Source of the DNA: Orbicella franksi
Taxonomy: Eukaryota
Assembly (NCBI GenBank): GCA_964199315.1
Contig: OZ116702.1
Span: 16,554,001-16,618,000 of the forward strand
Reading direction: 5' to 3'
DNA: 64,000 nucleotides
Of the stretch, positions 23,701 to 42,271 are shown piece by piece; position 1 is the first letter of the stretch; every line of letters begins with the position of its first letter. Below the pieces are notes generated by a model. That model searched no databases. It was not told the DNA's origin and saw only the letters and a program-made list of their open reading frames with translations. Position numbers and translations under genes: made by a program.

Positions 23701-26700
23701 TGATGAATTCATGCATGAAGAGAGTCAGCTTAAGATAATTAAAGACAATTATACCAAAGTCAAGGAACTACTTGATGATATGAAATATGGAGAAGATATA
23801 ACATTCCATCAATTTCTTCAAAAACTTCAATTATCAGAGTGTGATTACATTACAGCTATAAAGTATTCCTTGAAACGCCCAACATTATTACTTAAAAGAT
23901 CACCATCAGAAATAAGGGTAAATAATTATAATACTAACTTATTAAAAGCATGGCAAGCAAACATGGACGTACAATTTGTACTAGATCCCTACGCATGTGC
24001 TGTTTACATTTTGTCTTATATAACTAAAGGCCAAAGGGGTATTAGTAAATTGTTAGACAAAGCAAGCAAAGAGGCAAATTCGGGCAACAAAGATATTGTA
24101 AACAGAGTACGGCACATAGGAAATGCTTTCTTGAATGCTGCTGAAATTAGTGCCCAAGAAGCAGTTTATCTAGTTTTACAAATGCCTTTGAGAAGATCAT
24201 CTAGAGAATTTCAGTTTATTAATACTTCCAACCCAGATGAAAGGACATTTCTGCTGAAAAGCCATGACAAAATTAAAGAACTACCTGACAAATCTACTGA
24301 TGTAGAATCTGATAATGTTCTCAAACGCTATGGAAGAAGACCTAAACAGTTAAGTGATGTTTGTCTTGCAGATTTTATTGCTTGCTTCAACTGCATCAGA
24401 GATAAAGATAGTTCTTTTGATATTTCAAATCTTCAGGATGAATATCTTCCTGAAAGTGATTTTCATGAAAACACTGATGATGATCTTCACAGTAGTGATG
24501 AACATTTAGAAGCATCACTTGAATATCAAATGAGAGGGGGATTTAAAATTGTTAAGCGTCGAAAATCTAGAATTCTCAGATCTATAAGATTTCACAAAGA
24601 CAAAGACCCTGAAAACTATCATCGTGAGCAACTCATGTTGTATTACCCTTGGAGAAATGAACGTAAAGATTTACTTGGAAGTTCCCTTTCATATGAGGAA
24701 AGGTACAAGCAAGTGGAACATATAATAAATAAAAACAAAAAGAATTATGAGCACCACTCAAATGTCCTTGATGCAGCTGTTGATGACATACATGTACAGC
24801 ATCAAAATAATGAAGAAAATTCTCGACCTGTTGCTCCAAACGCCCAACATATCAATGACCAAGATCTTGCTTGTAAGACAAAACCAAGTGAACTATTTGG
24901 CTGTTTTGACCCAGGTACTAGTAAGGAATATAGTCAATGTGACATTTATAATGATAGTGGAATTTTGCCAAGGTCAAATGATGAAGAAGAACTGCAACAA
25001 AATAGAATAAGTGATAGTGATTACAGGAAACTTGTGCGCTCCTTAAAAAAAAAACAAAGAGAATTTTTTTACTATGTACTGCATTCTATCAAGACCAAAG
25101 ATGAACCTTTGAGATTATTGTTAAGTGGTGGAGCTGGAGTTGGGAAAAGTACAGTAACTAATGCATTATACCAAGTACTTGATAGATATCTTAACACAAT
25201 CCCACAAGAAAATCCTGACAACATTAAAGTCTTGAAAGCAGCACTTACAGGAAAGGCAGCATTTAATATAAAGGGGAATACATTGCATTCTGCATTCAAA
25301 ATACCAGTAAACAGAGGTTTTAGTTACTACACATTGGACAGAGATCGACTGAATACCATTAGAACACAATTAAGAAAGTTGCAAGTTATATTTATTGATG
25401 AAATCTCAATGGTAGGAAGTGGTATGTTTAATTTTCTCAATCTGAGACTCCAACAAATAACAGATACCAACAGACCATTTGGTGGCTTAAGTATAATTGC
25501 TGTAGGAGACTTATATCAACTGCAACCAGTTTTTGACAAGTGGATTTTTGAAAGAAGTAATGATGTTTACAGTGCATTTGCTACCAACATATGGAAAGAA
25601 TATTTTTCCATGTTTGAGCTAACAGAAATAATGCGCCAAAAGGATGATAAAGATTTTGCAGAACTGTTAAATCGTTTAAGAGAAGGGAAGCAGACCCAAG
25701 ATGATATCACAGTACTTAAATTAAGACTTCTGAAATCAAAACCAGGTGAATCAAATTATCCAGCCTCCCTGACACATGTATTTTCAAGCAATGCATTAGT
25801 AAACGCCAACAATGAAGCTGTGTTCAATTTGTCCCAAAGTGCAAAAGCTCAGATAAATGCTATAGACATTGTTATTGGTGATATATCCGATGAATTGAAA
25901 GATGAAGTAAAGAAAAAATCCCTGATGATCCTTCAAAAACAATGGGCTTATAGAAAAAACTTAATATTACAGTAGGATCAAAGTATGACTTGACTATAAA
26001 TGTTGACGTAAGTGATGGACTAACCAATGGAGCAGAATGTGTAGTGCAAGATATTGACTATAGAGTCGCAAAATCTCAGAGACCAAGCATTATTTGGGTA
26101 ACATTCTCAGATGGAAGTATAGGCAATAAGCAACGCAAAGAATATTCTTTTCTATTAAGAGATAAAATGGAAAACATGACACCAATTTTCGAAATAACGA
26201 GACAATTCAAAATATCCAACAGAAATCAACTTCAAGTTCTAAGAAGACAATTTCCTTTGAGACCAGCTGCAGCAAAGACTATCCATCGTTGCCAGGGTGA
26301 TACACTTAATGAATTAGTTGCTGACCTCCCCTCAACAAGTAGGGATCACATGCATTATGTTGCGCTTAGTAGAGCTCGTAATATTTCAGGATTACATATA
26401 CTTAACTTGAATGAAAAGAAAGTCTCTGTCTCCCTTAAAGTCAGTGAAGAAATGCACAGACTAAGAACACAACCATTAGAACCTTGTATTCCATCATTAT
26501 ATGAACAAACCTTGACAAATACCTTTAAAATCATTTTTCACAATGTAAGGTCTCTCCACTTGCATCATGAGGATGTTGCATCTGACTTTAATGTTCAGGA
26601 AGCTGATATAAATATTTGTGTTGAGACCTCTCTTTGTTCCTTAGACTCATCTTTCCATTACCAAATTGATGGTTTCAAGTTGTTCAGGAATGACTACTGC

Positions 26701-27198
26701 CCAAACAGCAATATTAGAACTTGTTATGGGACTGCAGTTTATGTAAAAGACACATTAACGTGTCTGACCACACCAACTAGGTTTAACATGAATGATGTAG
26801 AAATAACTGTTACAGTACTAAAAGACCCAATTCCAAATTTACACATAATAGGGATATATCGTTCAAAAAATAAAGTTCCACTGGAAGTCTTAATTAACAC
26901 ACTAAATCTGTTGTTGGATGCATTGCTACCAGAATCTTCCAGCACTACCCCAGTAGTAATACTTGGTGACTTCAATGTCAATCTTCTAGAGGAATCATCA
27001 AGCAAGAAGAAGCTCCAGAAATACTTTCAACAACAAAGACAGTCTACACAAATTATTTCTCAGTGCACAACAGATTACCATTCCCTCCTTGATCATATTT
27101 ATACTAGTATACCAGCTCAGGTAGAACACTCGGGTACTCTAGAATCCTATTTTAGTGATCACAAGCCAATATTTATTTGTTTGTCCCGTGGCAAATAA
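20788..27198 (+). pseudogene. Helentron polyprotein: 2A-like motif, OTU protease, Cys cluster, HUH Rep, Pif1 helicase, AP endonuclease
   Basis: OTU: GEGDCLFR...GTWAD...GHLGETHH. Rep: YRVEFQQRGSPHIHALFW and YILSYITK. Pif1: SGGAGVGKST, FIDEISMVG, VGDLYQLQPV, TIHRCQG, YVALSRA. APE: FHNVRSL, VETSL, LGDFNVNL, LDHIY, SDHKPI. Only two frameshifts (~23545 and ~25915). Confidence 0.95.
20935..20958 (+). other. 2A-like (StopGo) peptide core DIELNPGP
   Basis: REILIMSG-DIELNPG|P fits D-[V/I]-E-x-N-P-G-P, in frame 50 codons into ORF 20788. Confidence 0.8.
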
Positions 27199-28261
27199 AA
27201 CATCATGCGATTACTTTTCCTTTACAGTTGTAGCAATGGCTTCCTCAAGCCCTGCATCTTCACCCTCCAGTGACACAACAAGTAAGAACCTCTGATTAAT
27301 TTCCATTTTCTTTGCCTTTGAAAAATGAAGTTTCCACTCTTGTAACCCTTTAGCTCATATACCAAGTGTACAAAAGTAATAAACTGAAAAAAACTTTGAC
27401 AAAAATATTTACACAATATTCAAAAACTAACAGCACCACATAAAAGTAATTCTCACTAGCTTTCCAACAAGTGATAATTTCGATGGTTTTGTTCAAAGAT
27501 GATGAAGTTAGAACCACCTCGTTCAATGAAAATTTTACTTCAGTAGTCAAAGAGATAAAAAGAAGTTGAAATCCAGATAATAATACTGTTACTAATAATA
27601 ATAATAACAAAAAAAACAAAACAATATTCTTGTTAATATTTATACACTCTCTGGTGATCTGTTGTTATAGGGCAGAGCATAGGACTGCCCACTGGCCTTT
27701 TGAGCCCAAAATGTATGAAATTTGGAGGATCACCACCTTGCTCACCCAGCAAGATGACAGGTAAGATTTGATTTTCTATGTATTCAAGCATCTCTATGTA
27801 TTTAACAAATAGATTCCATTTTGCAGTACTCTTATAATACGCAGATAACATCAAAACGTGGCAAGAACAAAGAACAAAGAAGTACAGGGTGTGTATGCGA
27901 TGACCCACAGCCAAGTACCGTGACTCACATTCTTTCCACATTTTGATGTCCTCTGTGCATTATAAGAGTACACATGCACTGCCAAATGGAATCAATTTGT
28001 CTTATACAATGATTTTAAAAGCAAAATATTTTGAGATGAAAACCTTTCTGAGCGCAATTCATGATGTCAATCCTGCATCCATACTCTGATCAAAAACTCC
28101 CATAGGCCAATCAAAATGCACTCTACCATTTGCTACTACATGTATAATCAACACAGGTAAACAAGACTGGTCTAAAAGAGATTAAACAATGTTAATGTTG
28201 TAGGACAAGCCCTAACCATATATGATACAAACTCTTTTTAACATGTATGTTTTACCTTGCA

Positions 28262-29440
28262 GATTTGGTAGGGTATGTGCAACTCTGTACTGAAATACAG
28301 AAGAGTAGTCAGTCATCCAACACCTTCTTTGATGTCCATTTGCAAGTAGCACAAGAACAAAAAACAGTCTTCAAAGTAATGGTGAAGGCACACGAGTTTT
28401 CAAAACGCCAACTGTTTCTTGATGCCATGGTTGCACAAAAACCAATTATGGTAAAGCACTTACAAGTATCAAGCACTGGAACTCTTTTCTTCAATTACAG
28501 CAGTGAGGTATTTGATGCACCTCCACATGATGTGGACTTCAAATTTTCTCCACCAACAAAGGAAGTAACAAAGATTGACTCTTTGCTCACAAGCCTGACA
28601 TCTGGTATATTTACAGTGAGTGGAATGATTAAATGGAACGGCCCTGAAACTACTACAGAAAAAAATGGGGCTGTGGTGAGAGATGCGCTTCTCTACGATA
28701 GCACTGGCACAATCGAATTGTCTGTATGGCAAGATCATATCAAGCAACTGGATGAAAATAAATTTTACACCGTAACAGACACCAAACTGAGATATTATTA
28801 TGGCAAGTGTCTGTCTACAACCAAGACAACACAGATTATGAACGCTGAGCCACAAGACTTGTCTCAATGTGCCATAACCAAAGACAACACCCAATGGCTG
28901 TGCTGCCCAAGCATAATGAATGTAGCCATAAATGCCAACCCAGTTTGCAACAACGAAGACTGTTCAAAAAAGATCACTCTCAACACAGCAGGATCACAGG
29001 TAATCCACTGTCAAAGCTGCAACAGGGCAATGCTGTTGAAGCAATGTTACTATGAAATGAACATAAACTTCCACTTAGAGAAAGATGACACAATATACAA
29101 GGTTACTGCTTTTCCCAAAATAATCAGCGCCTTCCTATCCGAAGATATATACAGTTATAAACAAGACACCGACACCCTGATTGAAAAAATGCTGCTGATC
29201 GAAAATGTCGACTTCCAACTTTTGCCTAACCAAAGGCTTGTAACTAACATGAGACAGCACCCTCAGGAGGAAGTAACAGATGAACAGCTACTGAAATCCA
29301 TACCCAATGTCAGCAGCCAGGAGCAATCACAGGAATCTCAGCAAGGACAAAGAAGCAAACAAAGTACACCAAGACAAAAGGACAGAAACGCAACCAAGAA
29401 AACAAAGGACAAACCACTAAAATCCAACAAAGTTAACTAA
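28262..29440 (+). CDS. RPA1-like OB-fold ssDNA-binding protein with C4 zinc finger (Helentron accessory; probably last exon)
   Basis: VRDALLYDSTGTIELSVWQD (OB fold) and PVCNNEDCSKKI...HCQSCNRAML. A polypyrimidine/CAG acceptor lies at ~28250-28262. Confidence 0.8.
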   Translation, partial: DLVGYVQLCTEIQKSSQSSNTFFDVHLQVAQEQKTVFKVMVKAHEFSKRQLFLDAMVAQKPIMVKHLQVSSTGTLFFNYSSEVFDAPPHDVDFKFSPPTKEVTKIDSLLTSLTSGIFTVSGMIKWNGPETTTEKNGAVVRDALLYDSTGTIELSVWQDHIKQLDENKFYTVTDTKLRYYYGKCLSTTKTTQIMNAEPQDLSQCAITKDNTQWLCCPSIMNVAINANPVCNNEDCSKKITLNTAGSQVIHCQSCNRAMLLKQCYYEMNINFHLEKDDTIYKVTAFPKIISAFLSEDIYSYKQDTDTLIEKMLLIENVDFQLLPNQRLVTNMRQHPQEEVTDEQLLKSIPNVSSQEQSQESQQGQRSKQSTPRQKDRNATKKTKDKPLKSNKVN

Positions 29441-30782: not shown

Positions 30783-31971
30783 TTAAGTTTTGGTAAGTGT
30801 ATATAAAACTATTACCAAAAAATAATAAAATATGACTAAGACTGTCACAACCAAATTATTTTTAGACAAAAGAAAAATACCTTTTAGAGAAAAAGAACTT
30901 GCAAAAGCAGGTTTGCTCTGGCCTGTGACTGCTGACTGAACCCCTTGAGTTAATGTATCTGAGTTTGCTTCTGTCTCAGCTGTGGCTATGTTGCTTGTAG
31001 CTGTCTGGACGGTGCAGTCTGTGGATGTGTTGGTTGTCAGGTTGTCTGTGACAGCGTGGTTTACCCTAGGCCTCCCAGTATCTCCTTCACTTTCTGTTTC
31101 CTGTGTCATTTTCATCAACTGCAATAAGTATGAAAACTGACCCATTAATCATTATTGCTACATCAAGCAAATCTTTAACCCTTCAGATATTCAATTTTTT
31201 GTATGAGCTATATAATATGCAGCTTAGGAGGAGGGACTGTTAAAGTACTAATCAATCAAATACCAGAGCCCATTGACTACCACATACAATTTACTGTAAT
31301 CTAAGGCAGTAAGCCTTATTAAAATGTTTTTACATCTTCGTAAGTAGGCAAATCAACGTCACTTTCATCACTGTTGTATGATTTCATAAACAGGGCATCC
31401 AAAATAGCTGTTTTCTTTCAAAGGTATAAGGTAATCCGGTTGTAAGACTTCCCAAGTTCCTCTTTGTATCGCTGTAGTGTAAATGGTTCCATTCCCCCTG
31501 GAAGGTACTTCACTTTGGTTCTATCAGGATACAGCAATACAAAACTGGTGGCACCACATAAACTTAAATCGCTGTTGAACTTCACAATCTTCTTGGTTCC
31601 TTAGCACCAATCGATGGCAACACTTTAAGCGGCAATGTCGACCCGTGGATTACTTTCAGCTCTCCGTCTTTTAACCTTATCAGGCCGATATGTATGGTGA
31701 CTTCACTCTCGCTGTTTTCCTTTCTCGCTTTCTTCACAGACTTCCTACTAACAAACCGCGAGCTTAGTTCCTTTCCTCTTCTTTCTCTATATTCCTCAAA
31801 GGTGACTGGAGTACTTTGATTTCGCTTTCTTTTTGAAGATTCCATTTCTAATTCAGCAACACACAAAGAATCGTCATCTTTTACTCCTATAGTTAACCCA
31901 CAACCATGACAAAATTTCGCCTCAGTGAGTAATCGTGAGCCACAACCCGAGCAAAACATGGCGAACAGCAA
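30783..31971 (-). pseudogene. 5' fragment of a transposon-borne double-zinc-ribbon gene (G2E3/HECT-like family, inferred)
   Basis: MFCSGCGSRLLTEAKFCHGCG, EVTIHIGLIRLKDGELK..GSTLPLKV and, after a frameshift, LYPDRTKVKYLPGGMEPFTLQRYKEELGKSYNRITLY. No HECT domain is present in the window. Confidence 0.5.
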
Positions 31972-32064
31972 AATTTGCGGGAAAAGCTGACCTGAACCTT
32001 AAGCTCTGGAGAGTCTGAAGACGAATTTGCCCAGTCCCTTTAGCCAAGTGCAGTGCATGATGTG

Positions 32065-32360
32065 TTCTTTTTTATTTGCAGTGTAATTTTTACTTGCAGC
32101 GTTCGTTTTTTTTGTTTGCAGCGTCTCTGGTATTTGCAGCATAAGTCTTTTATTTACAGTGCTCATTTTTTATTTGCGGCGTACTTTTTTATTTGCAGCA
32201 TTTGCTTTTTGTTTGCAGCGTTTCTTTTTTGTTTGCAGCATTTCTTTTTTGTTTGTAGCGTTTCTTTTTTGTTTGCAGCGTCTCTTTTTTGTTTGCAGCG
32301 TTTCTTTTTTGTTTGCAGCGTTTTTTTTTGTTTGCAGCATGTCCCTTGTGGGCCGTCGTA
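32065..32360 (-). repeat. ~21-bp subterminal tandem repeat ending in a TAC terminus (IS3EU-like end, tentative)
   Basis: Roughly ten copies of TTTTTTGTTTGCAGCG-like units, ending at GTCCCTTGTGGGCCGTCGTA (32360), which reads TACGACGGCCC on the minus strand. Confidence 0.6.
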
Positions 32361-32398
32361 CTATTGTGCAAGCGCAGTTCACCTCTCAGGAATCAAAG

Positions 32399-32525
32399 AT
32401 GGCAGATAACAAAGTCGAAATTGGATTGTTGCTACTGTTAAGCTGTAGAAATCGAAGAAAAGTTATGCAAAGACAAACACAAAAAAAAACCAAGAAAGGT
32501 CTGGATAAGAGACTTTCATTGTTAA
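32399..32525 (+). pseudogene. PIF/Harbinger transposase N-terminal stub
   Basis: MADNKVEIGLLLLLSCRNRRKV followed, after a slip in an A-run, by RKVWIRDF. This is the typical LLLL..RRR..VW.R start of Harbinger nucleases; nothing further follows. Confidence 0.45.
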
Positions 32526-32611
32526 GGGCCACTGCTATTTTACATAAATAATTTTGTTCTGATAACCAAAAACAAGCACAGTTTTCAGTCAAGGCATTAC
32601 ATGTGCACAGT

Positions 32612-34017
32612 ATGGATCTTTTATCCCAGTATGAAAGTTCAGAAGACAACGAGACCTGTGGTGGCGAGGATAGCCCGGGTGTACAGTATATTTAATTACA
32701 TACAGCCAAGCAGATAACAGAGCAATACCAACTAGACAAGGTTTCGCAGATATAGTGCTGGAAGCTGTCAGAGCAACAGATGCTTCCAAGGTGCTGTGGG
32801 TGTGCACCCAGGAAAGGCATCAATCTGGCCAAACAGAGGGAAAGTTTGGAGTTCACTTTCACGTTGTGATAAACCTCAACAAAGTAAAACGCTGGAATAC
32901 AATGCGGTGTTACATCAAGGAAAACTGGAGAATTAATGTTCATTTCTCTAGCAAACACTGCAATTATTATTCTGCCTGGGTATATGTGACAAAAGCGGGT
33001 GACAGTTATGTCGAGTTGTCAAATCACCCAGATCTAACAAACGAAGGACACCTCGGACGTTGACTGCCAGTCAAACCTTGGTAAGCCGCACACATGTGCG
33101 AGAGCCGGGAAGTGACAAAGAGAGCAGTGGTGGTGATTCGGGTGAAGAGGGCAGTTCGAGTTGAGCAGACAAGAATCTAAGCCGTTCACGTTTGAGTGTT
33201 TTTGAGGTCTCGGACAAAGGTATTAAAACTCGCACTGAGCTGCTGGCTTTGGCAAATGAACAAAAGCAGGCGAAGACGGACTTGGCAGAGTTTATCCTTA
33301 ACAGGGGACCGAAAGCTGTTGCAGAAGTACTAAGTACATGTACTGGCTGGGAAATGGCGGAGTCTAACAAGAGGCTTCAAAGAAGCAGGTTATCTCAGCT
33401 GGAAATCTTAGAAAAAGCCAAGGAAGGCACTTGTCCTGATGATTGCAATGGTATCTGGTTTAATTGTGCCCTAGAGGTATTGGAGTGGAACGGAATTTCC
33501 CACCAATCGTTTGCGGAAGCAGTCATGAACCTACTAGAGAAAGGCTGTGGTAAATTTTACAATATTCTTCTTGTTACAGCCACTTACTGTCAACTTCGAA
33601 ACCTTTTTGAATCCAGCAACCACTACCTTCGCATGGGTTAGCGAGGAGCAGTCAGAAGTCATTTTTCTAAACGACTTTCGTTGCAGCCCCCAAATAATAC
33701 CGTGGCACGATCTTCTTCTAATGTTAGAGGGACAGCCTGTACACCTACCAACCCCGAAGTCACACATTTGCAAAGACATTGTGTTTGATAAGAACACGTC
33801 TATATTTGGCACTAGCAAGCACGAGTTAGTTTTTGTACAAGGGGGTGTGGTCAATGAGAGGGAAACTGAGATGATGCGGGTACCATGGCGAATTTTCCAT
33901 CTTAGCCGCCCAATTCTACAGCAAGACTAAAAAGCAGTACCACCGTGTGGAAAATGCTTTCCACATCTAGTACTCAGTGAAATCATAAGGGCGTCTAGTG
34001 GAGAATACGAGGACTGA
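32612..34017 (+). pseudogene. HUH endonuclease + SF3 helicase Rep (CRESS/parvovirus-like), intronless, degenerate
   Basis: Motif I VYLITY (32686), motif II VHFHVVI (32851), motif III YVTK (32983). Helicase part: KFYNILLV, [Walker A missing], QPL, AWV, Walker B VIFLNDF, LLLMLEG, motif C IFGTSK, ETEMMRVPW, PPCGKC. Several frameshifts and stops. Confidence 0.85.
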
Positions 34018-34133
34018 ACACTTTATAGGGACTATAACCAGGCAGAGGGCTAAAATTATTTTATTTTCTTTGAAATTGTGACCATTTCCATATTCCTCGA
34101 AAGCAGTTAATAGGACAATCACTGTCTTTTGGA

Positions 34134-34233
34134 GGGCATATAGTTTAACTGTGGCCCAAGCAGTATCATTTGCACCCAAGTGGAGCAAGGGTGCAAAATG
34201 ATGCTATGAGGGACATAAATAAACTATATGCCC
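34134..34233. repeat. 100-bp imperfect palindrome (hairpin)
   Basis: Outer arms GGGCATATAGTTTA / TAAACTATATGCCC (14 bp, perfect); inner arms ATCATTTGCACCC / GGGTGCAAAATGAT; 11-nt loop. Confidence 0.85.
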
Positions 34234-37200
34234 GACAGAAGTCATTTGATTATCATTATTATCAATACACAAGGCCAAATTGTACAAATTCATTTAAATT
34301 AATGAGAAAAAAATGTTTGACAGAGATGTCCCATGAAACTACGATATGGACAGTTGTTGCCACAATACGATCAGCTAAACAAGAGCCAAATAAAATTCTT
34401 CTGTTTACAATAAAAGTCAAATATAATCTAGTTTTAAAAAGATTAGTACAGTAACAACGATTAGAAAAAATCAACTGACCGCCCTGTAAGCTTCCGCCAT
34501 CCCTCTCTGCCGTGGCAAGCAAAATGAAAACAACAAAAGCCGAATAAACTCAGCTAACTTCTCTGCACCTTTCCAAACGTAGTCCGTGTTCTGCCCTTCC
34601 ATGAGGTATCGATTCAATTTCTACCTGTCTCCTGACTGAATAGATGATTAATTTTGTGTTCTGGTTTTGCCGGCATCTTTTTCTTTCATAAATAGCTAAT
34701 TATTCGCACAAGTAAGATTAATACAACTAAGTCTGCCCTTGCATGTTCACTGTTTTTTTTGGGGGGGGGGGGTGATTTCTACCGTCCCTTCATAAGAGCA
34801 TAGCTGCCTTGTGAGTGCCCGATCTCCAAAAAGCAGAATCAGCGGTCTCCATGTTAGGTACCAGGTTCTCTCGGTTCTCCTGTCATTAACCATGAGGAGC
34901 TTTACCCAAGAAAAAAATTCTCAGCAGGATGCGTAAAATGAAACCTTGGCTTGTCACAGTGAGGCGAGAGATCTCAGTTATCACACGGCCGAAATTAATT
35001 ATCTTTTTTTGATCCTGTCATGCAACAAAATAAACCAGACGCCACAATCCACGCGCGAGTCTTAATTTAAACACGAGAAGACTATGGCAATTTTCTTTCG
35101 CAAATATGCAACAAGTGAAGATGTGAAATCGAACCGACTTTTTACTTGCGGTTCTCTGATTGCTGAGCACTTTTATTGAACGCTTGCTGTTTTTGGATTC
35201 GCCGAATTTAGTCAACGGCAGAGGAAACTAAAAATAGTGACAGTAAAAGAAGAAGTGACGTTATGAAACTAAGTTTGAACGACATGGAGATAGGCTTCGT
35301 TTCTTTGTTTGTTTTCTTTAATCAGCTAAAATTTGTTGAAGCGTGCGTTAAGCATAGGTAAACTCAGTGTCGTCGGTCACATAACTTGCGTGTAACGCAA
35401 ACGGTTAGTTTCCAGTACCTCGCTTGTGTCCTGGCTATTGTTTTCGGATGTCTGCAGAGGATTTGTGTACTTGCTTGTGATCGCTATTGTGTGTCAAAGG
35501 TAATTTCTTACTAACTGGGTAATATTCTACTTTGGCAGGACTTTCAAGTTTCAAAAGCATCATGTTTTTGATTTGTAACTCACTTGAAGCATCAATATGG
35601 TGGGAGACGAACTGTCGTCCTCCTCCGCGTTTAACGTTTCCAGTCTTTCAAGGGTTACAAGTTCATCGCTTGACCCTCGAAAGCATTGGTATGTCCTTAC
35701 CAAAGAAGTTTGTCGAGGTTACCCGAAGGATTTCGCCAGGAATGAAATTTTTAAGTCATTTCCAAACGAGCCTCGAAGTGTGGCTCCGCAGGAACCTCAG
35801 CCCGCCAAATCGGCATATTCAAGCGACTAAACTCCATCGCCTTGGACATGGAGCACCACGATGCCATGGACTTCGCTTTTGGCGGGAAAGCGTGCCCAGT
35901 TATTCAAGCCTCTGAGGAACTCCAAGCAGAACTGGCGGAAAAATCACGGTCAATTGAATTCCTTGAACTCAAACTAAAAAACCTTCAGGGTCAGGTTGTT
36001 GATCTCGAAACGAGTTTAAGTGATTTTTCTTCTTCAGAGCCAACATGCTGTTCGACTCCTGTCAACTCTCGTTCACCATCATCATGCTGCAGTTCGATCG
36101 AGGAGACAAAATGCAGCCCAGACCTCGGATCGACGACCATAAAACGACAAGTTGTAGCCAAGTGCAAGGAAGTGCTAGATTCAATCAGTGACGTCTCTGA
36201 AAAATATAAAGAATCAATTGCTTGCGTTCTAGGAAGCAGTCTTATTTATGGTGATGATGCTCAGAGAGAAAACGTGAGAAACCACATCTCGGAGGTCATA
36301 AATATTGTAATGGACTCAAAGGGGTCGAAGAAAGGCTTTTCTGAGCTTCTGTCCTCAGAAACACACGCTCATGTTTTCCAGAGCATGAGAGTTCCGGATT
36401 GGGTGCTGTTGTATTTCAAGCTGCACACAAAGTTGCCTGATTCAGCATGGCAGACGCTGCTCAATTTGACCCAACTTGGAAAGACCGGGGTGAGTGCACT
36501 TCTGGGTAATGATGAGTGACATGAAAAGCTTTCGTTCCCTTTTTCTATTTATTGTTCTTAGTTTTGTTTGCATGCTGCTACTTTTCATTCATTGTGATTT
36601 GCTCAATATAATGGTTATGTATTCTCCAAAAAATAAATTACCATCATTACTTTTATCAAGGCTACTTCCCAATAAAAAATGTGTGTCTAGTATAATTTAT
36701 CAGTTTCACAATGTATTGAGCATTTCAATTTTACTCAGAGTGATCGCCAAAGACAACAAATCAAATATCGTAATAGCATAAGGAACTAGCTAGAAGCAAG
36801 GAAACACAAGTGACCAAATCACATATGCCAAATCGCAATTGGTTTTTTTTTGCATCTGATTGGCTGAGAGGGAAGCACGACCAACTTGACTTGATAAGAG
36901 ATGACTGTATATAAGAGTTAAATTTATGCCTCCATTAATAGTTTCCTTCTATTTATCCTTAGCGATCCAGTGATACACCTTTACTTCTTTCAAAAAATGA
37001 AATCAAGGCTGTAAAGAAGTTAGTATTTTCTGTTGTGCGGAAAACGCTGAAAATTGGTAGAGTCAATGATGCTGACTTTGAAGCATGCGATGTGGACCTA
37101 CAATCTGTTCTTGTCTGGGCCATACGAGAACAGCGCCTTCATTGTTGTGACACTGAGGACCTGGAATTCAATGTTAAACTTGATGGCCGTCCTCTTGGTG

Positions 37201-38194: not shown

Positions 38195-41100
38195 TGTAGT
38201 GTATGTCCATATATGGTATTTCCTTATTTGGAAGTGACCATGTGCTTGAATAGAAGAGACCATCTAAAATGGCGGATTAAAACGTTGTGTTGTCAAATCC
38301 AGTCTCTGTTTGTTCCGCAAACACCACATTTTGGCGACGAGGATGGTGGTCACATTAAGTGGATTACCGTGCATATCTCCCTTCGACTGCATTGGGGAAC
38401 CAGCCACACTGGCTCAACGCTGGGACAAGTGGAAAGCTGAATTCGAACTATTTGTGGCAGCTTCGGGGGTTGAAGACAAAGTGCAAAAGCGAGCTCTACT
38501 TCTACATCTCGCAGGACCTGGAGTCCGTGAAATTTTCAAAACGTATTCAGCTGAAGTGCGAGGAGACAACAAAGAGTTCGATAAAGCGATGAAGTGTCTC
38601 TCGGACCATTTCAAAGTGAAGAAGAACGTACCTCTAGCGAGACAAAAACTGCTTGCCAGCCAGCCGAATCCGGGCGAAAAGATCAATAACTTCATTACGC
38701 GTTTGAAAAGTTTAGCGGAACACTGTGACTATGGTGAAGAAGAAGATAACCAGGTGAGAGATATTGTGATTTCGCATATCACGAATAAGGAACTGAAGGG
38801 CAAATTCTACCGCGAAGAAAACCTTAGTCTGACCAGACTTCTGGAAATCGTGAGCACCTATCACCATAAGGATGCCTTGGTTCTCGTAAGCGAAGAAACT
38901 GTGAATCGTACCTGGGAAGACCGAAGTAAGGGCGATAAAGGAGCGAAGAGCAAGCAGCCATGGCAAGGCAAATGTTGGAGATGCGATAAGACAAGTCACA
39001 TGGCGAAAGATTGTAAAGTTTCTCGTAACCATACTTGCAGCAAATGTGGAAAACGTGGGCACATGGAGGTCTGTTGTCACACGAAACAGGATAAACATGG
39101 CAAAGGAAGAGGCAAATCTGGAAGAAAACGAGAAGGCGTACAAACCATAGGCGACCAGCCTGACCAAGATGACGTGGAAGGAAGCAAAGTCAGTAAAGAT
39201 GATGGATTTTATGTCTTTAGCACCTCAGATCGTGAGTCAAACACTTTACCTCTTATGATTGAAAGTGAACCTGTCAATGTCATCATAGACTCAGGTGCTA
39301 CCTGCAACTTAATGTCTGAGCAAGTGTTTGATAAAGTGTCCAATGGAAAGCTAGAGTTGTTAGAGACTGACAGGAAAGTTTATGCTTATGCATCTCAGCA
39401 GCCGTTAAAGCTTAGAGGAAAATGCATGTTGAACATTAGTGTACCTAATACACAAACGTCGTTGAAAGCCGAGTTCTTCGTAATGCCAGGCTCCGCAGAC
39501 ACATTGCTGGGCAGGAGCTCTTCTGAAGAATTAGGTGTCTTGAAAGTGGGTGTTTCTGTGAATGCTTGTCAACTCAAAGATGTTACTGATAAGAAGGCTG
39601 CCCTTAAGGCAAAGTACCCTCAAGTGTTTACTGGTCTTGGAAAATTGAGAAATTTCCAATTAAAACTGCATGTAGATGAAAGTGTCACCCCAGTTGCTCA
39701 AGCTATGCGAAGAATTCCGTTCAGCAGGAAACAAAAGGTTGTTGACAAACTAGAGGAACTTGAGAAGCTTGATGTGATAGAGAAAGTGAACGGTCCAACA
39801 AGTTGGATTAACCCCCTTGTTAGTGTCAAAAAGCCAAATGGTGATGTTCGCATATGTTTAGACATGAGGCAAGCCAATCGAGCGATATTAAGAGAAAAAC
39901 ACCCTGTGCCTACCATTGAAGAGACACTGCAAGAAATTTCAGGGGCAAAAGTGTTCTCCAAGTTAGATTTGAACATGGCATTTCACCAAGTAGAACTTGC
40001 TCCAGAGTCAAGAGACATTACCACTTTTGCAGGACCTAATGGTCTTTACCGCTACAAACGTCTGATATTTGGTGTCAATATGGTCACTGAGAAGTTCCAA
40101 CACATCATCTGGCAGATACTCAAAGATTGCCCTGGCGCTCACAATATTCATGATGATATCCGTGTAGTTGGCGCTTCTGAAGAAGAACATGACGAAAGGT
40201 TGAATCAAGTCATGAAGAAATTAGAAGAGAGTGGCTTAACACTGAATTATGAAAAGTGCCAGATCGGCGTGAATAGCATGGAGTACCTTGGTAACGTGTT
40301 AACTGACGAGGGATTACAAGTATCTGGTGACAAAGTTGAAGCCATTGTGCAAGCACCAAGACCAAAGGACCAGTCAGAGCTGCGAAGCTTCCTTGGTTTG
40401 GCACAATATTGTTCAAGGTTCATTCCAAGCTTCGCGATCATTGCCAGCCCACTGTGGGATCTAACCAAATCACATGCCAAATGGAAATGGGGCACTGCTG
40501 AAGAGAAGGCTTTCCAAGCAGTCAAAATGCAGCTGACACAGGCACCAGTCATGGCATTCTTCAAACAAGGAGCGGAGACCCGTGTCACCACAGACGCCTC
40601 ACCAGTAGGTATCGGAGCTGTCTTGGAACAAAAGCAAGCTGATGGCCTGTACAGACCTGTACACTATGCTAGCTGAAAACTAACTCCACCCGAGAGCAGA
40701 TATTCTCAGTTTGAGAGGGAGGCACTGGCGGTGAAGTGGGGCTGTGAGAAGTTCTTCCTGTACATCCATGGAAATGAGTTCGAAATTTGCACTGACCATA
40801 AGCCGCTGGTCACTGTGTTTGGTCCACATTCAAAACCACCTTCAGCCAGAATTGAAAGATGGTTGTTATACATGCAGCAGTTCAAGTTTAGCATCAGACA
40901 CATCCCTGGCAGAGAAAACGCCGCTGACGCATTGAGCAGATTGCCAGTAGATAGTACTCCTGATGCAGCCATCAAGCAGACAGAAGAATATGCACGCAGC
41001 ATAGTTGCTGATGCCATACCTGCAGCATTAGCACCCCGCCAAGTTGAGAGAGAATCAGAGCGAGACCCTACCCTGCAACTGGTTCGCCATGCCATAACTT

Positions 41101-42271
41101 CTGGTGATTGGTCGAAACTCCAAGGAACAACCTACAAAGCTGTTAGAAATGAACTCTGGATAATGGGACAGCTGGTTATGAGAGGAAACAAAGTTGTCAT
41201 TCCAGAAAAGTTGTGGAACCAGACCATTCAACTGGCTCATGAGGGTCACCAAGGGATGGTGCGAACGAAATCTCGATTAAGAGAGAAAGTATGGTGGCCA
41301 GACCTTGACAAACAAGTTGAAAAGTTAATCCGAGCCTGCTACCCATGCCAGCTGGTTGGACCCAGACCAAAGCCAGAACCAATAAGGTCAACACCACTGC
41401 CTCAAGGCCCATGGAGTGAAATTGCTGTGGACTTACTAGAGATTCCAAAGAAGGGACACTTGCTCGTTGAAGTTGACTATTATTCTAAGTGTCCAGAAAT
41501 AGCTTTTCTGACCAAGACAGACGCAGGAAATGTGATCAAATGGAGAGCATGTTTCGCACTCATGGTTTGCCTGAAACCCTCAGAAGTGATAATGGTCCAC
41601 CGTTTGCTTCACGAGAATTTGAAGGATTCCTTGAGTACTTATCGATTGATCACAAGAAGGGCATCCCGTATTGGCCTCAAAGTGATGGCGAAGTAGAGAG
41701 GCTCAACAAAACCCTCCTGAAGGCAATCCGAATAGCACAACTACAAGGCAAAGATTGGAAGAGAGAAGTACAAGACTTTCTTTTCCAATATCGCAGCACT
41801 CCCCATACAGTCACTTCACTATCTCCAGCTGAGCTCCTTATGGGCAGAAAGTTAAGAGATAAGTTGCCACAGGTTAAACCTTCTCGTGATCAGGCTACTG
41901 AAGCAGAGTGGCAAATTCTTCTCAGAGAAAGGTATGCTCGCAGGAAGCTAAGAGAGAAAGAGTATGCTGACTCAAAGAGACATGCCACAACAAGTGACAT
42001 TGCAGAGGGCGACATGATCCTGCTACGTCAGAACCGCGAGAACAAGTTGTCACCAACATTTGAGCTCAAGCCATATCGAGTAGTAGAGAAGAATGGAAAT
42101 GCAGTTATCATCGAGAATTCTTCTGGCCAAAGTAAAATGAGGAATACTGGTCACATGAAGAAGTTTGTAGACCCAGGTGCTTCAGGAACTGAGCCCCCGG
42201 CTCCATCTAAAATGGCAGATTAAAACATTGTGTTGTCAAATCCAGTCTCTGTTTGTTCCGCAAACACCACA
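38195..42271 (+). mobile_element. Ty3/Gypsy LTR retrotransposon inserted in an intron of the transposase gene
   Basis: 5' LTR TG..CA at 38195-38328, PBS-like TGGCGACGAGG at ~38332. The 3' LTR remnant 42203-42271 matches 38260-38328 with 2 mismatches. Flanks GTCCT/TTCCT are a near-match 5-bp TSD. Confidence 0.93.
38343..42223 (+). pseudogene. Gypsy gag-pol (Gag, two zinc knuckles, protease, RT, RNase H, integrase)
   Basis: RWDKWKAEFELF, CWRCDKTSHMAKDC, IIDSGATCNL, VRICLDMR, IHDDI, TDASPVGIG, TDHKPL, HEGHQG, SDNGPPF, GEVERLN. One stop (40674) and one frameshift (~41540). Confidence 0.95.

Follow-up and report, generated by a model that had tools for sequence, protein, structure and literature searches.

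In this study, we found that a decayed replication initiator (Rep) gene in a 64-kb stretch of the Orbicella franksi genome (hereafter the window; C5:16.55-16.62 Mb in a 497-Mb assembly) belongs to a coral transposon with two genes, and that the window locus itself is a dead orphan fragment of that transposon. Complete copies, 4.0-4.3 kb in length, are organized as LTDR-Rep-spacer-transposase-LTDR, the LTDRs being direct terminal repeats and the two genes lying tail-to-tail; this architecture was observed directly and leaves us in hardly any doubt. A search with the SF3 helicase piece of the window Rep, of the kind that the initial annotation had proposed, gave at least 47 matches in the genome. 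At two loci, the Rep frame is open over 489 codons and contains GPANTGKT, the intact Walker A motif that the same annotation had thought worth seeking, and at these two loci an open frame for a 359-aa Tc1/mariner transposase lies 850 bp downstream on the opposite strand. Given that the two open-frame copies are 99.4% identical, the family has been recently active in the O. franksi genome.

The linkage of the two genes is not confined to these copies. Within 10 kb around each of the 20 best non-self Rep matches, a transposase (36-100% identity) was present downstream on the opposite strand at 19 loci, five of which represent one duplicated segment on C8. Among 13 weaker loci, five had the transposase and the other eight were short, decayed, and without it. 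Conversely, all five fetched transposase loci that had no nearby Rep match were without Rep, and two of them have LTDR-like ends. The transposase matched PF13358 and PF01498, both above the cut-off, and the catalytic triad in 121 homologues was DD34E in 92 and DD33E in one, with 28 not parsed. The Tc1-type HTH, the DD34E triad, the TA duplication, and the inverted outer ends place it in the Tc1/mariner superfamily. The region C8:20.98-22.89 Mb (L045-L049, L235) contains five or more nearly identical segments of 7 kb, two of them in tandem. In each segment, a decayed Rep-transposase pair lies next to another transposon, an arrangement that may reflect segmental duplication or capture.

No third ORF of 130 aa or more was present in the complete units, and no capsid family was found among 23 flanking ORFs, whose matches were host genes or other transposons. 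The initial annotation had viewed the locus as a capsid-less mobile element, and this view holds: the complete copies have no linked capsid gene, no relative was confirmed in IMG/VR, and the element is not an ordinary single endogenous virus. Its further suggestion of a third, Rep-only type of rolling-circle transposon has to be given up, as the complete copies encode a Tc1/mariner DDE transposase and have TA duplications and direct repeats bearing terminal inverted repeats (TIRs).

The window copy is a remnant of the internal region of a D-family element (32510..34112, plus strand, as are all the Rep features below), 87-90% identical at the nucleotide level to L094, L095, and L132. It retains neither LTDR and has lost the transposase and the iteron-like array, and no LTDR or transposase match was found within the 64-kb window or nearby on C5. 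The Rep pseudogene (32612..34017) starts with MDLLSQY at 32612, has its stop at 34015-34017, and matches the natural open ORF P0001 by tblastn in three pieces with 41-54% amino acid identity. Its HUH nuclease domain (32686..32994) contains motif I VYLITY (32686-32703), a conserved E-x-H (32809-32820), motif II HFH (32854-32862), and motif III YYSAWVYVTK (32965-32994), and matches PF23343 weakly, at an E value of 0.004 that is under the cut-off. The central helical region 5′ of the helicase (33189..33560), delimited by alignment to P0001 and corresponding to helices 215-332 of the structure model, is by this model likely an oligomerization region. The remainder of the SF3 helicase (33574..33960) includes Walker B VIFLNDF (33658-33678), motif B′ (33739-33765), motif C IFGTSK (33802-33819), and a C-terminal CxxC (33946-33957). 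The first part of the Rep-transposase spacer follows (34018..34112) and is cut just 5′ of the iterated palindrome known from relatives: homology stops at L094:2047, and the repeats of L094 begin at L094:2068. That at least 47 genomic matches and 653 database homologues exist means that the match of the window Rep is not due to chance.

Motifs I, II, and III, Walker B, and motif C were thus all recovered where the initial annotation had placed them, and the small deletion to which it attributed the missing Walker A is real. Compared with the three D-family relatives, 32 nt are missing after approximately 33567-33571, exactly at the Walker A site (deletion site 33567..33575), with a shift of the frame, and no GxxxxGK[ST] occurs in any frame between 31000 and 36000. 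The same annotation was right about the frameshift but understated the decay, since five further indels (after 32680, 31 nt; 33048, 1 nt; 33214, 12 nt; 33266, 3 nt; 33333, +6 nt) and two in-frame stops (33162 and 33928) are present. As it had also stated, no capsid ORF adjoins the window Rep.

The neighbours of the remnant are separate repeats. A 5′ stub of a Harbinger transposon (32361..32516, plus strand), not part of the element, has 37 matches in the genome including the window, and the relative L067 carries the DDE domain of Harbinger. The stub meets the Rep remnant at a 4-nt microhomology (32513-32516), which makes the junction a deletion joint rather than an element end. The Harbinger stub that the initial annotation saw at the start of the unit is therefore real but its link to the Rep incidental, and Harbinger as a mobilizing partner is ruled out, the stub being a separate 37-match repeat fused at the microhomology. 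On the right, the remnant is truncated by an unrelated high-copy repeat (34103..34697). Just 5′ of the Harbinger stub lie a tandem array with about 12 copies of a 20-bp unit and a minus-strand zinc-ribbon ORF (32065-32338 and 31582-31998). Elsewhere in the window, a helicase C-terminus fused to an endonuclease/exonuclease/phosphatase domain and then an RPA-like ORF (25954-27198 and 28226-29440) likely represent a Helitron/Helentron, and a Gypsy-like gag-pol with stops and a frameshift occupies 38268-42223.

The Rep gene has been maintained together with the transposase. The residues of the catalytic motifs are conserved in 96 to 98 of the 98 aligned top matches, Walker A, B, B′, and C are conserved among relatives, and intact Rep ORFs of different families are only 40-50% identical. 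The dN/dS ratio was 0.15-0.19 in five of the six measurable pairs and 0.53 in the pair with a dS of 0.02. The two genes were compared at the 44 loci where a single segment covers 140 aa or more of each; across these loci, Rep and transposase distances were strongly correlated (Mantel r 0.84; none of 2000 permutations reached it), and the correlation was 0.63 among pairs with a Rep distance above 0.3. The two trees have 22 of 40 splits in common, and the transposase tree reproduces 13 of the 16 strong splits seen for Rep. On these sequence comparisons, we consider that Rep is an obligate functional cargo under purifying selection that co-diverges with the transposase. Some Rep genes contain GT-AG introns; six loci (L151:2280-3058, L157:2868-3535, L152, L163, L164, and L167) have one at a common position near residue 265, and L148:2136-2481 has one as well. 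The intron-bearing loci look like those of other hosts. Contigs from RNA libraries (four runs, three studies) cover both genes, a coverage that may not reflect transcription.

Structure modelling of a natural relative (pLDDT 86), with the nuclease domain also modelled alone, gave two affinities for one protein. For the helices and the helicase, the best matches are AAV Rep40/68, B19 NS1, and papillomavirus E1 (Z 17.6-15), helices 215-332 align with AAV Rep40 and E1, and the fold of the whole protein is closest to AAV Rep68. The nuclease alone is nearest to vientovirus Rep (Z 10.8, rmsd 5.7, 124 aligned residues; and Z 10.6, rmsd 2.9, 105 aligned residues), followed by geminivirus (8.8), nanovirus (8.8), and circovirus (8.6) Reps, with AAV5 (6.8) and MVM (5.8) below these CRESS Reps. 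Sequence identity to the fold matches is 10-23%; sequence searches of the PDB gave nothing under an E value of 0.08 (E1 at 0.76-0.98), and Pfam searches with Rep gave sub-threshold matches alone, including a weak one to PF00519. As modelled, the coral Rep combines a CRESS-type nuclease with a parvovirus/papillomavirus-type SF3 helicase, so that, compared with the Reps of CRESS viruses and parvoviruses and with E1, its two halves point to different virus groups. It also differs from CRESS viruses and parvoviruses in that the element has no capsid and is integrated by a DDE transposase.

Self-comparison of the elements revealed that the terminal repeats are direct rather than inverted, and all 27 elements with at least two LTDRs have them in direct orientation. 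Each LTDR is 146-374 bp long, has inverted ends of its own, starts with CAA(T/C), and finishes with (A/G)TTG. Outer TIRs (CAAT...ATTG) are therefore present, but they lie inside direct repeats that each hold both TIRs. The common ends and target-site duplication to which the initial annotation had directed attention are these LTDRs and TA: the outer flanks are TA, with a target preference of A-x-C-TA-G-x-T (C before TA in 36 of 37 and G after TA in 32 of 33), and for two elements that sit inside a different repeat, the empty site of that repeat runs uninterrupted through TA. On the inner side, the LTDRs are flanked by TC(T/C)GA, mostly TCAGA across divergent families. Each LTDR is built as TIR, C-run, CAATGTTG, loop, CAACATTG, G-run, TIR, and folds as one long hairpin in all eight tested (z -5.5 to -9.0; -2.6 to -7.9 in the same eight when the TIRs are left out). 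The C8 family, L039, L050, and L228-L230 yielded no LTDR pair. Elements of the divergent families A and C occupy nearly the same position in one other repeat (L031:1921-2072/6408-6631 and L042:3799-3941/7945-8165), which may hint at an insertion hot spot that goes further than the 8-bp preference.

The LTDRs occur in several arrangements. The LTDR searches scored 40 of 167 and 40 of 211 candidates. The 60 scored LTDRs of families A and B comprise 18 solos flanked by TA on both sides, 16 TA/INT, 15 INT/TA, one INT/INT (INT being the internal region), and 10 other or imperfect ones. One genomic dimer was seen in total, at L248, with the structure TA-(LTDR-INT)2-LTDR-TA and internal regions 99.9% identical. 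In 12 young elements, all three shared non-CpG LTDR variants were common to both ends of one element and none to the same end of different elements, which is the outcome predicted if the two ends descend from one template, although the sample is small and local gene conversion gives the identical outcome. Head-to-tail LTDR-LTDR dimers with no internal region were also seen (C13:20804867-20805170, C7:16512734-16513032, and C7:15492327-15492625; L180, L266, and L191), with a joint that is exact or lacks 1-2 nt and with TA at the outer ends where these were seen; they could represent products of excision followed by end joining.

Where the two genes converge, the spacer contains short repeats in inverted arrays on either side of an AT-rich core, a pattern most evident in families A and D and in L139. 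We counted 41 occurrences of ACGGTT/AACCGT, where 8.5 would be expected, spread over 15 of the 23 spacers; this motif, picked post hoc, is absent or weak in the other eight. In an ungapped scan for inverted repeats, only 10 of 18 spacers scored above all 20 shuffles, and a looser count of 5-mer motifs found 121 where 63 were expected, the orientation being mixed in several families. Non-autonomous derivatives (six complete copies in family A, 9-10 in B, and two in D, with seven copies mapped) keep the ends and the palindromic spacer; those of A and B have lost most of both genes and the D type most of Rep. Since the middle would not survive a simple deletion of internal sequence, the spacer appears to be needed in cis. 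On its sequence, this iteron-like spacer is a candidate origin for Rep; its motif could also be a terminator or a transposase site.

Taking these data together, we think it somewhat probable that Rep copies a circular form from the spacer and that the transposase then cuts out units and inserts them at TA. Recombination between the two LTDRs would release the internal region together with a single LTDR as a circle, and a solo LTDR would stay behind. Rep would bind the inverted ACGGTT-type repeats of the spacer, nick, and unwind, producing (LTDR-INT)n concatemers. The transposase would cut such a concatemer at one LTDR's left end and at the right end of an LTDR further along, and would insert the monomer or dimer between them. 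If units are cut from concatemers in this way, both LTDRs of an element descend from one template. Cutting at the inner ends would be disfavoured by the TC/GA flanks found there, which are conserved and differ from TA. Several points count against the circle model. Concatemer ends would be flanked by TC/GA and not by TA, so a transposase tolerant of TC/GA is required; the five Rep-less transposase loci, two with LTDR-like ends, speak against it too; and parvovirus-type Reps are described as having no joining activity (PMC6668415), and the parvovirus type is the one to which the helicase half of the coral Rep belongs.

The strongest rival to this circle model, which we regard as unlikely but far from negligible, is plain cut-and-paste transposition in the manner of KolobokP, with Rep only nicking or re-replicating the chromosomal copy in place and thereby provoking unequal crossover or conversion between LTDRs. 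The pattern of LTDR-INT-LTDR, solos, and multimers matches that of KolobokP, for which induced unequal crossover has been proposed (PMC9587614), and both the dimer and the shared LTDR variants would be explained with no circles. The DNA contigs of four runs, which cannot phase across an LTDR, yielded neither an informative joint nor a sign of strong over-representation. However, an SF3 helicase is unneeded for a nick, yet Walker A, B, B′, and C are conserved; multimers are rare (the single INT/INT among the 60 LTDRs); and the dispersed derivatives retain the spacer.

Two further readings are each decidedly improbable. In a rolling-hairpin scheme, the palindromic LTDRs would act as parvovirus-like terminal hairpins and the excised element would be copied as linear single-stranded DNA, in keeping with the hairpin fold of all eight LTDRs tested, their conserved C-run/CAATGTTG...CAACATTG/G-run core, and the closeness of the whole Rep fold to AAV Rep68. 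Terminal resolution in rolling-hairpin replication should yield flip and flop ends, whereas the LTDRs are direct in 27 of 27 elements, and the nuclease is CRESS-like (Z 10.8 vs. 6.8 for AAV and 5.8 for MVM). To the same degree we doubt that the element is a satellite or integrated form of an ssDNA virus, with Rep replicating, the transposase integrating, and a capsid supplied in trans. A viral-type Rep, a wide marine spread, and a 4-kb unit, which suits a small capsid, would fit such a satellite, but the lack of a third ORF of at least 130 aa, of a capsid among the 23 flanking ORFs, and of any confirmed IMG/VR match, the GT-AG introns in some Rep genes, and the co-divergence with the transposase all speak against it.

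It is very improbable that Rep is a passive viral cargo of a Tc1 element with no role in its spread: the Rep-less transposase loci and the spread of derivatives and solo LTDRs that have no Rep gene of their own would allow it, but the dN/dS of 0.15-0.19, the near-invariant catalytic residues, and the congruent trees largely refute it. Least probable of all is a rolling-circle transposon in which Rep itself is the transposase, since the copies with Rep and no transposase (the window copy, L040, and eight of the 13 weak loci) are truncated or interrupted, L040 retaining an LTDR, and the TA duplication and TIR-bounded ends typical of Tc1/mariner contradict it for complete copies.

The element is not limited to this genome. 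Rep has 653 protein homologues, and clustering at 50% identity gave 4912 representatives, essentially unnamed, of which 895 have an E value below 1e-30. One cluster member is from Porites lobata, coral metagenomes are among the holders, the nearest Atlas cluster is mostly from Cnidaria, and presence in marine data is wide. Among the best 80 of 166 confirmed metagenome stretches, 42 have the transposase, including 25 of the 27 in which the downstream sequence reaches 1200 bp or more. Terminal overlap suggesting circularity in three of the 80 contigs, and INT-LTDR-INT joints in several, can both be produced by assembly collapse. Scans of IMG/VR with one protein and with an alignment gave two and 41 pattern matches, none confirmed. 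In prokaryotic genomes, one of 46 pattern matches was confirmed (L268), a broken Rep amid non-genic DNA on a MAG contig, which is probably carry-over or contamination from a eukaryotic host. With somewhat more doubt than conviction, we propose that these elements form an ancient and widespread self-amplifying class, in which a Tc1/mariner integrase is permanently tied to a viral-type rolling-circle replicon with a CRESS-like nuclease, a parvovirus/papillomavirus-type helicase, and an iteron origin, the Rep lineage falling between CRESS viruses on one side and parvo/papillomaviruses on the other. If true, this would be a DNA analogue of LTR retrotransposons, with both terminal repeats regenerated from one circular template. 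To our knowledge, cut-and-paste transposons are not thought to bring their own replication machinery.

Comparison with known systems sets the coral family apart. With Tc1/mariner elements it shares PF01498 and PF13358, DD34E, the TA duplication, and TIRs starting with CA; it differs in ends that are direct repeats each with a TIR pair, in a conserved second gene, and in the palindromic spacer. Neither Tc1/mariner elements with LTDRs nor any with an HUH+SF3 gene were found described in the literature searched, with Repbase and subscription journals outside its scope; such a lineage, whose ends are composite-like and whose viral-type replication gene is obligate, is apparently undescribed, and Repbase may hold it unlabelled. 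Helitrons are defined by a Y2 Rep, an SF1B helicase, and no target-site duplication, whereas we found an SF3 fold and a TA duplication; replitrons are defined by an HUH transposase alone with no fused helicase, whereas we found SF3 motifs and a linked DDE partner. According to Craig (2023; PMC10288648), replitrons likewise place an HUH domain, a one-tyrosine CRESS-like nuclease, in a eukaryotic transposon, but in replitrons and Helitrons the HUH protein is the transposase and the helicase is none or SF1B, in contrast to the SF3 helicase and separate DDE transposase found here.

Among known systems, those nearest to the coral family are KolobokP and a truffle repeat that carries Rep and a transposase. 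The latter, a geminivirus-like transposon of Tuber melanosporum, has Rep and transposase ORFs (Liu et al., 2011; PMC3198968), but as described there its ORFs are interrupted, it has 37-bp TIRs and no obvious target-site duplication, and its Rep falls in the geminivirus clade. The same paper reports virus-like repeats in cnidarians and flatworms. DENSOV_HM, PIVE, and an acorn-worm parvovirus-like repeat hold a viral Rep inside a eukaryotic repeat and, in the descriptions given, are virus-like and lack a transposase or direct repeats (PMC3198968). Judged by its description, the cnidarian DENSOV_HM groups near papillomavirus helicases (PMC3198968), like the weak PF00519 match of the coral Rep. 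The coexistence of a CRESS-like nuclease and a parvovirus/E1-like helicase in one Rep bears on the evolutionary path from CRESS viruses through parvoviruses to papillomaviruses that has been proposed (PMC6668415).

KolobokP elements, described by Kojima and Bao (2022; PMC9587614) as composite-like DNA transposons, share with the coral family the LTDR-INT-LTDR plan, TIRs on each LTDR, solos, multimers, and a DDE transposase with a second nuclease gene. Their autonomous units are 4.0-4.7 kb and the non-autonomous ones about 1.8 kb, and their hosts are marine invertebrates, with no cnidarian in Table 1 of that paper (PMC9587614). A later account still calls the KolobokP case unconfirmed (PMC13565253). 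KolobokP LTDRs are about 450 or 660 bp, against 146-374 bp in the coral, and KolobokP has a Kolobok transposase plus a nuclease of the His-Me finger type (PMC9587614), whereas the coral element has a Tc1/mariner DD34E transposase, an HUH+SF3 initiator, and a TA duplication. KolobokP is the sole composite-like eukaryotic lineage that we found in the literature, and the coral family would represent a second, independent origin of this layout, in which, because the biochemistry of the Rep partner is well understood, the question of how the LTDRs stay identical becomes directly testable.
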